Positions 56,306 to 56,413 of a DNA stretch of 64,000 bases are shown here, in pieces. Made by a program: the position numbers and the translations under genes. The stretch lies in the NCBI RefSeq assembly GCF_965641715.1, contig NZ_OZ282453.1; one strand, written 5' to 3'. This DNA is from Escherichia coli. Its GTDB lineage: Bacteria > Pseudomonadota > Gammaproteobacteria > Enterobacterales > Enterobacteriaceae. Each line of letters opens with the position of its first letter. The first letter of the stretch is position 1. The notes under the pieces were generated by a model. The model saw nothing but the letters and a program-made list of their open reading frames with translations, was not told the DNA's origin and did no database searches.

Positions 56306-56413
56306 TCCTCGCCCCTCTGGGGAGAGGGTTAGGGTGAGGGGAACGTGCGGGATGTAAAATTCAGTGCGCCGGCATCGCCGGATGCGATGCTGGTGCATCT
56401 TATCCGGCCTACG
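56306..56413. repeat. Composite repetitive element between convergent yhfS and frlR: G-rich palindrome plus REP unit
   Basis: ctcgcccctctggggagagggttagggtgagggg (internal palindrome ccctct-gggg-agaggg), then REP-like gccggcatcgccggatgcgatgctggtgcatcttatccggcctac. Confidence 0.6.

Follow-up and report, generated by a model that had tools for sequence, protein, structure and literature searches.

The window analysed here, a 64-kb stretch of Escherichia coli DNA, contains the convergent 3' ends of yhfS and frlR, whose stop codons enclose a spacer of 151 bp (56264-56414). In the list of open reading frames, yhfS occupies 55178-56263 on the + strand and ends with the TAA at 56261-56263, and the frlR stop codon lies on the - strand at 56415-56417. 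The identity of yhfS at the orthologous loci of K-12 and OZ197100 follows the RefSeq annotation. OZ197100 is the closest genome (99.1% identity over 701 bp) and has the same gene pair with the same spacer length. The annotated K-12 genome likewise contains this pair with a spacer of equal length, at 3504784-3504934, and the K-12 spacer aligns with that of the window base for base. Two dispersed repeats, a G-rich element assigned below to BoxC (~56292-56346 with its conserved flanks) and a REP unit (56365-56414), together cover ~105 of the 151 bp, an extent that broadly bears out an initial description of the spacer as almost entirely repeat. The rest consists of linkers and a small hairpin (56265-56284). 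On both strands, the whole spacer is predicted to fold more stably than its shuffles (-74.3 kcal/mol, z = -5.2 on the + strand; -59.2 kcal/mol, z = -3.3 on the - strand). The features of the spacer and its edges are as follows.

56261-56263, + strand: yhfS stop codon TAA, from ORF 55178-56263 and the RefSeq orthologues
56265-56284, + strand: small hairpin GCTTGA(T)...(G)TCAAGC adjoining the yhfS stop, an inverted repeat
56288-56353, + strand: outer 9-bp helix enclosing BoxC (56288-56296 with 56345-56353), from the predicted fold (-35.6 kcal/mol, z = -3.9)
56292-56346, + strand being the G-rich strand: BoxC of type A, consisting of left flank CGCACCGAATGGTC, the 36-nt core and right GAAC, from alignment with 15 K-12 type-A copies
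56306-56315, + strand: BoxC pyrimidine arm TCCTCGCCCC, which begins with T where K-12 has C
56319-56328, + strand: BoxC purine arm 1 GGGGAGAGGG, able to pair with the pyrimidine arm (one G.A mismatch)
56332-56341, + strand: BoxC purine arm 2 GGGTGAGGGG, which can pair with the pyrimidine arm instead, through a G.U pair
56318-56357, - strand: C-rich, G-poor tract (22 C and 2 G in 40 nt), a candidate Rho-loading region, from a C-minus-G scan
56365-56414, - strand: solitary REP, in frlR sense CC-GTAG-GCCGGATAAG...CATCCGGC, from inverted repeats
56415-56417, - strand: frlR stop codon TAA, with the GTAG 2 nt and the REP stem 6 nt downstream

The G-rich segment is almost certainly a copy of BoxC, also called PIT (potential intrastrand triplex), TMECO or HPG1. 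The first-pass annotation had described it as a 34-bp G-rich segment with an internal palindrome, followed by a canonical REP-like unit. The palindrome and the REP are both present (at 56313-56328 and 56377-56408), and an inverted-repeat search located the palindrome arms CCCTCT/AGAGGG at 56313-56318 and 56323-56328 with GGGG between them. The G-rich segment is likewise present, but its unit is 36 nt long (56306-56341) and reads TCCTCGCCCC-TCT-GGGGAGAGGG-TTA-GGGTGAGGGG. This sequence follows the BoxC core pattern of CCCTC[G/T]CCC(C), a 2-6-nt loop, GGG(G)AGAGGG, TTA (type A) or CCG (type B), and GGGTGAGGG(G), and it is intergenic, like BoxC elements, with the stop codons of yhfS and frlR on either side. 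Holder et al. (2015, NAR) dealt with the motif as BoxC, renamed PIT and then TMECO, and their Table 1 gives 23 K-12 copies, among them the frlR/yhfS copy as TMECO no. 15 (3504892-3504857, type 'A mm') and the fabI copy as no. 9. Kaplan et al. (2016, NAR) reported a G-quadruplex motif between frlR and yhfS, with its midpoint at 3504863, as HPG1 no. 38. The K-12 orthologue of the BoxC in the window is the element behind both entries (TMECO no. 15 and HPG1 no. 38). BoxC likewise appeared among the known stem-loop families of E. coli in an independent survey, and Rfam returned no match for it. BoxC and REP are both already described and this exact copy stands in two published catalogues, which leaves little discovery value in the elements themselves.

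For a closer description of the copy, all 23 K-12 BoxC elements were re-extracted, and the type-A ones (n = 15) were aligned with the window and with O157:H7 EDL933. The conserved span comprises ~56 bp, with the 36-nt core between a left flank (consensus GYGCNCGGACGGTC) and GAAC(AG) on the right, and corresponds to ~56292-56346 in the window. The copy shares with the BoxC/PIT/TMECO/HPG1 family the three-block core (pyrimidine arm, purine arm, TTA, purine arm), the flanks and the intergenic site, and differs by points only: the pyrimidine arm opens with T instead of C, and the first loop is TCT instead of TTT. Its minimum-energy RNA fold pairs the pyrimidine arm with purine arm 2. On the + strand the fold reaches -35.6 kcal/mol (z = -3.9) and on the - strand -23.9 kcal/mol, both below shuffles. 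The outer 9-bp helix that encloses BoxC is an addition of this locus. Its pair 56294:56347 is C-G in the window, T-A in K-12 and T.G in OZ197100, a covariation that we treat as anecdotal, just as we treat the helix as local. We rejected the helix as a feature of the family, as it is missing at the other K-12 BoxC copies and its left arm is absent in EDL933. Some K-12 type-A copies share a longer conserved left extension (CTGATGACAAAGTC...AAAAA), which, judged by sequence, suggests that a longer form of BoxC may exist; the region of the small hairpin in the window (56270-56290) resembles this extension weakly. The small hairpin itself folds at -8.4 kcal/mol (z = -5.2) and has one mismatch in K-12.

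The treatment of the G-rich segment as a genomic repeat was borne out. Across 5,425 complete E. coli genomes, a 43-nt core had a median of 18 occurrences per genome (maximum 33), and 91,590 of the 91,656 occurrences were chromosomal, the other 66 lying on plasmids. A 72-nt version of BoxC was found at a median of 17 places per genome, and for a 30-mer of the core 0 matches were expected in shuffles. With 23 copies, K-12 falls within the ~20-30 chromosomal copies per E. coli genome that characterise BoxC. One of these, a 42-nt copy with 97.6% identity, lies upstream of fabI, between ycjD and fabI. Within the 64-kb window, we found no second copy.

Part of the core extends far beyond E. coli. 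In a scan of genome contigs, the exact 21-mer GGGAGAGGGTTAGGGTGAGGG was present in very diverse genomes, and the hosts among the matches listed include Pseudomonas, Bradyrhizobium, Polaromonas, delta-proteobacterial and Verrucomicrobial MAGs, Candidatus Gracilibacteria and one Methanomicrobiaceae (archaeal) MAG, where occurrences in MAGs may reflect contamination. Two Pseudomonas genomes had at least ~30 copies each among the matches listed. In nearly all of the at least ~120 matches listed, the 21-mer is preceded by the complementary C-arm. The sequences flanking it are lineage-specific across distant lineages among the matches listed, and a left flank CTCGGTCAGTC / CGAACGGTC is common to the Pseudomonas and E. 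coli copies. This wide distribution is not new, because Holder et al. (2015) had described the motif from over 260 genomes.

The second repeat is a solitary REP. Its imperfect palindrome of ~35 nt, GCCGGATGCGATGC/GCATCTTATCCGGC, has arms at 56377-56390 and 56395-56408 that are 86% complementary, and CTAC follows at 56409-56412 (GTAG at 56412-56409 on the frlR-sense strand). The unit is extragenic and repeated, with a 40-mer that has a median of 23 occurrences per E. coli genome, a BLAST-limited count (E <= 1) that applies to a sub-family. It matched the Rfam model naRNA4 (the REP325 unit), which represents one particular REP cluster and not REPs in general, weakly (28.8 bits, E = 0.006; gathering score 59.5). 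With the E. coli REP, or palindromic unit (PU), it shares the ~35-nt imperfect palindrome, the GTAG/CTAC end, the extragenic multi-copy nature and a position near a stop codon. It differs in being a single unit outside any BIME and in having a left extension, through which an overlapping alternative hairpin can form (56365-56378 with 56384-56397) that is preferred on the + strand. In K-12 this alternative hairpin is a perfect 16-bp stem. Two substitutions turn the G.U pairs of the window at 56368/56394 and 56371/56391 into the Watson-Crick pairs G-C and A-U, respectively. Like BoxC, the REP folds below shuffles on both strands (-30.3 kcal/mol on the + strand, -23.7 kcal/mol on the - strand), and for both elements the + strand RNA is by far the more stable one. 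Elsewhere in the window, at 13440-13462, a near-perfect 10-bp palindrome TGCCGGATGC-GA-TGCATCCGGCA shares the REP half-site GCCGGATGCGATGC with the frlR REP.

The spacer, where the 3' regions of two converging genes meet, holds two unrelated dispersed repeats next to each other, and BoxC and REP do not form a functional unit. A recurrent BoxC-REP composite was considered and rejected, as a REP lies downstream of BoxC in only two of the 23 K-12 copies, those of frlR-yhfS and fimH-gntP; REPs are present in ~30% of convergent spacers. The fimH-gntP spacer (K-12 ~4549786-4549883) also lies between convergent genes, and in it a type-A BoxC is followed ~27 nt later by a REP in the same relative orientation.

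We next considered what such a spacer may do to the two converging transcripts. The elements had initially been proposed to act as transcript stabilisers or terminators. Stabilisation is plausible for the REP, but termination of the intrinsic type is not supported, as the hairpins are not directly followed by a U-tract. The GC-rich stems on both strands would suit a bidirectional intrinsic (Rho-independent) terminator formed by the hairpins, and the perfect 16-bp alternative REP stem of K-12 is followed by GUUGAAUUUUA and coincides with one weak match in a terminator scan. That match, the only one in K-12, is within chance (1 vs 0.7 expected). In the window, the scan of 55900-56800 gave 0 terminator-like sites, and the U-rich runs begin at least 5 nt past the stems. 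As far as the summary in Holder et al. (2015) goes, earlier reporter work found neither promoter nor terminator activity for PIT/BoxC. An intrinsic terminator is not supported, because no hairpin stands directly before a U-tract, and we regard this reading as very unlikely.

The proposed gyrase and IHF binding fares worse still. REP-containing BIMEs are known gyrase and IHF sites, and the spacer would qualify as such a DNA site on the strength of its REP. Binding of this kind is a property of BIMEs with several REPs, whereas this spacer contains one REP without an inverted partner. Where BIMEs comprise at least two REPs in alternating orientation with inter-REP motifs, as in the IHF-binding RIP/BIME-1 and the gyrase-binding BIME-2, only one REP is shared here, and the second inverted REP, the intervening motifs and the IHF consensus are all absent. 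The consensus of BIME-1/RIP, WATCAANNNNTTR, had no match on either strand in 56230-56450. The REP is not a BIME, because it is single and without an inverted partner, and a role as an IHF or gyrase site is hardly credible. The first reading of the spacer is corrected accordingly: its G-rich part is BoxC and not a new palindrome, and the IHF, gyrase and intrinsic-terminator roles do not fit.

We lean, with some reservation, towards a role at the RNA level, in which the stable U-less hairpins would protect the 3' ends of convergent transcripts that are terminated by Rho. Each of the converging transcripts would gain very stable stem-loops without a U-tract. Rho would end transcription beyond the hairpins of the spacer, and 3'-5' exonucleases would then trim the RNA back to these hairpins, by which the mRNA 3' ends would be both set and protected. 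Published data on K-12 are consistent with the Rho step. Adams et al. (2021) reported a bicyclomycin-sensitive (Rho) region on the frlR-sense strand with its peak at K-12 3504972 (+), a Rho score of 3.6 and p = 1.3e-6. The peak lies 38 nt beyond the spacer, at about 56226 of the window, although the signal was derived from 800-nt windows and is coarse. The layout also resembles that described by Dar and Sorek (2018), who found that the E. coli mRNAs terminated by Rho have their 3' ends at stable stem-loops without a U-tract (24% of which are REPs), with sequence richer in C than in G after them. Read in frlR sense, the REP hairpin stands before the complement of the BoxC purine arms, an arrangement that matches this layout. 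The spacer shares with Rho-dependent U-less 3' ends (Dar and Sorek 2018) and with the dual terminator and stabiliser REP325 (Harris et al. 2026 preprint) the U-less hairpin, the C-over-G-rich RNA after it and, in K-12, a bicyclomycin-sensitive region downstream. It differs from these systems in that no 3' end is mapped to its hairpins.

Against this role, the supplements of Adams et al. (2021) list no Term-seq 3' ends inside the spacer and none at eight other BoxC copies. The frl and yhf genes were poorly expressed under the assayed conditions. A definition of 3' ends by BoxC itself found no Term-seq support in these data; at gcvP, the transcript ends at an ordinary terminator just before BoxC.

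The REP may in addition act on translation. REPs located no more than 15 nt from a stop codon reportedly stall ribosomes and lower translation (Liang 2015, as cited in other work), and the distance of 2-6 nt between the frlR stop codon and the REP is within this published range for damping translation. Ribosomes terminating on frlR may stall at the REP stem, which begins 6 nt past the stop codon, and FrlR translation would then be lower. Where a REP lies between convergent genes, its presence correlates with higher expression of the pair.

The C-rich strand of BoxC raises a more specific version of the Rho reading, in which the antisense of BoxC (the frlR sense) would be a Rho loading (rut) site, and REP and BoxC together a modular Rho terminator with a protective hairpin. 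The frlR-sense RNA over BoxC (56318-56357, - strand) shows a larger surplus of C over G than any other stretch of 30-60 nt in the 64-kb window, whichever strand is taken, and it lies directly downstream of the REP hairpin, with the K-12 Rho region peaking ~90-130 nt further on; this, too, fits the hairpin-then-C-rich layout of Dar and Sorek. The other antisense-read copies in K-12 speak against it. Four of them (aaeR, alx, pstA-pstB and yihS-yihR) have no listed Rho region nearby, and two more have one only 0.7-1.3 kb away. PIT elements showed no terminator activity, and the G-rich complement of the C-arm, which lies downstream, can base-pair with half of the C-rich tract. A general rule that the antisense of BoxC is a rut site was rejected on the four K-12 copies without adjoining Rho regions, and at this locus we consider a rut site improbable. 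Somewhat more remote is a broader conjecture, a long shot on present evidence, that BoxC is an orientation-dependent RNA module: read in its G-rich sense it would form a very stable hairpin, read in its C-rich sense (that of frlR) it would load Rho behind the REP, and the two would jointly make a compact Rho-dependent terminator. If this were true, it would be the first function for a repeat family in which distant bacterial phyla have the same core 21-mer.

Natural variation at the locus bears on whether BoxC matters at all. Both gene ends were present in 2,951 of 5,426 genomes. In the sampled rows, they were separated by the full 155-bp block, apart from one variant, in which 52 bp are lost (56310-56361 of the window). 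This deletion removes the BoxC core and its right flank and keeps the left flank and the REP. It shows TC microhomology at the junction, is accompanied by an 8-bp insertion in the small hairpin near the yhfS stop, and was seen in E. coli O15:H12 2273-PO3 and in A10. Strain 042 is one of the 91 genomes, out of 5,426, that have the junction sequence of the deletion, and ~2,860 genomes have the full spacer intact. BoxC is dispensable at this locus, because these 91 genomes carry the 52-bp core deletion, and it is probably a tolerated passenger in the spacer. The BoxC-deleted allele is also a ready-made natural control for testing the function of BoxC.

Larger differences show that two cassettes of variable presence, the frl operon and the yhf cluster, meet at this spacer. 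O157:H7-type strains (EDL933) are without the whole of yhfZ-yhfS. There, BoxC starts 18 nt past the trpS stop codon, and the intrinsic terminator that follows trpS in the window (48694-48737) is absent. Compared with the window (48691-56305), the junction of this loss coincides with the left edge of BoxC. CFT073-type strains (CFT073, FORC_041) are without frlABCDR, BoxC and REP, and an ordinary terminator hairpin separates their yhfS from yhfL; the left junction lies 1-2 nt past the yhfS stop codon (~56265 of the window). Together with the 52-bp core deletion, the yhfZ-yhfS loss in O157:H7 and the missing frl operon of the CFT073 type make three structural differences that have junctions within ~40 bp of BoxC. 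This clustering of junctions fits the raised variability that Holder et al. (2015) saw around TMECO loci, and it fits equally well with repeats collecting at cassette boundaries. BoxC is possibly associated with local instability.

Such instability could arise if BoxC acted as non-B DNA, as an intrastrand triplex or a switch between G-quadruplex and hairpin, that stalls replication or repair and creates a hotspot of deletion and of cassette gain and loss. In a motif scan, the BoxC purine arms (56319-56341) were the only canonical G-quadruplex motif of the 64-kb window. The three structural differences are independent and have their junctions close to BoxC, and Holder et al. (2015) observed more variability around TMECO loci than around controls. 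In vitro, the single strand forms a triplex (Holder et al. 2015), and circular dichroism detected G-quadruplex and hairpin forms (Kaplan et al. 2016). In the same study by Holder et al., however, in vivo DMS footprinting and CD/NMR of double-stranded DNA gave no triplex signal. The quadruplex alone has a predicted energy of -12.6 kcal/mol, against -23.2 kcal/mol for the hairpin that forms with the C-arm present, and on this difference of ~10 kcal/mol we rejected the G-quadruplex as the dominant RNA fold. The association may also run the opposite way, with repeats accumulating at the junctions of cassettes, and ~2,860 genomes retain the full spacer. We judge a causal role of non-B DNA in the turnover at this locus unlikely.

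A simpler account is that BoxC and REP are both purely selfish or neutral passengers, tolerated by a convergent 3' spacer and without effect on yhfS or frlR. The BoxC core deletion in 91 genomes and the common haplotypes that are without one neighbouring cassette fit this account, as does the rarity of a REP beside BoxC in K-12 (2/23). In the BoxC literature, neither gene class nor distance nor orientation showed a bias, and promoter or terminator activity was not found; no 3' ends are mapped in the spacer. Set against this are the unusual stability of the hairpins, the fact that any stable 3' hairpin impedes exonucleases, the location of the REP inside the 15-nt range of the frlR stop, and the changes between window and K-12, namely one compensatory change in the outer helix and the two G.U-to-Watson-Crick changes in the REP alternative hairpin. 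A pure passenger status of both repeats is a possibility that we take seriously without favouring it. Weighed directly against it, the mechanism of hairpin-protected, Rho-terminated 3' ends stands at roughly even odds.

Three further observations concern the spacer and its neighbours. A 6-bp direct repeat, TTAATG, at 56260-56265 and 56415-56420 exactly bounds the 149-bp block of hairpin, BoxC and REP. Each copy overlaps one of the stop codons, and the pair resembles a target-site duplication. Insertion of the whole block with duplication of TTAATG was rejected, as 4,197 matching genomes included no empty-site allele. Across REP and BoxC runs a 51-aa ORF with a TTG start (56279-56434 on the - strand; ...PLTLTLSPEGRGD...), which is open in K-12 and EDL933. 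It differs by six amino-acid changes, is unannotated and is made of repeat sequence, and it is probably spurious. Finally, the yhfS of OZ197100 has an internal stop and is annotated as a pseudogene, as is frlD in EDL933. Both the frl and the yhf cassettes appear to be decaying in some lineages.
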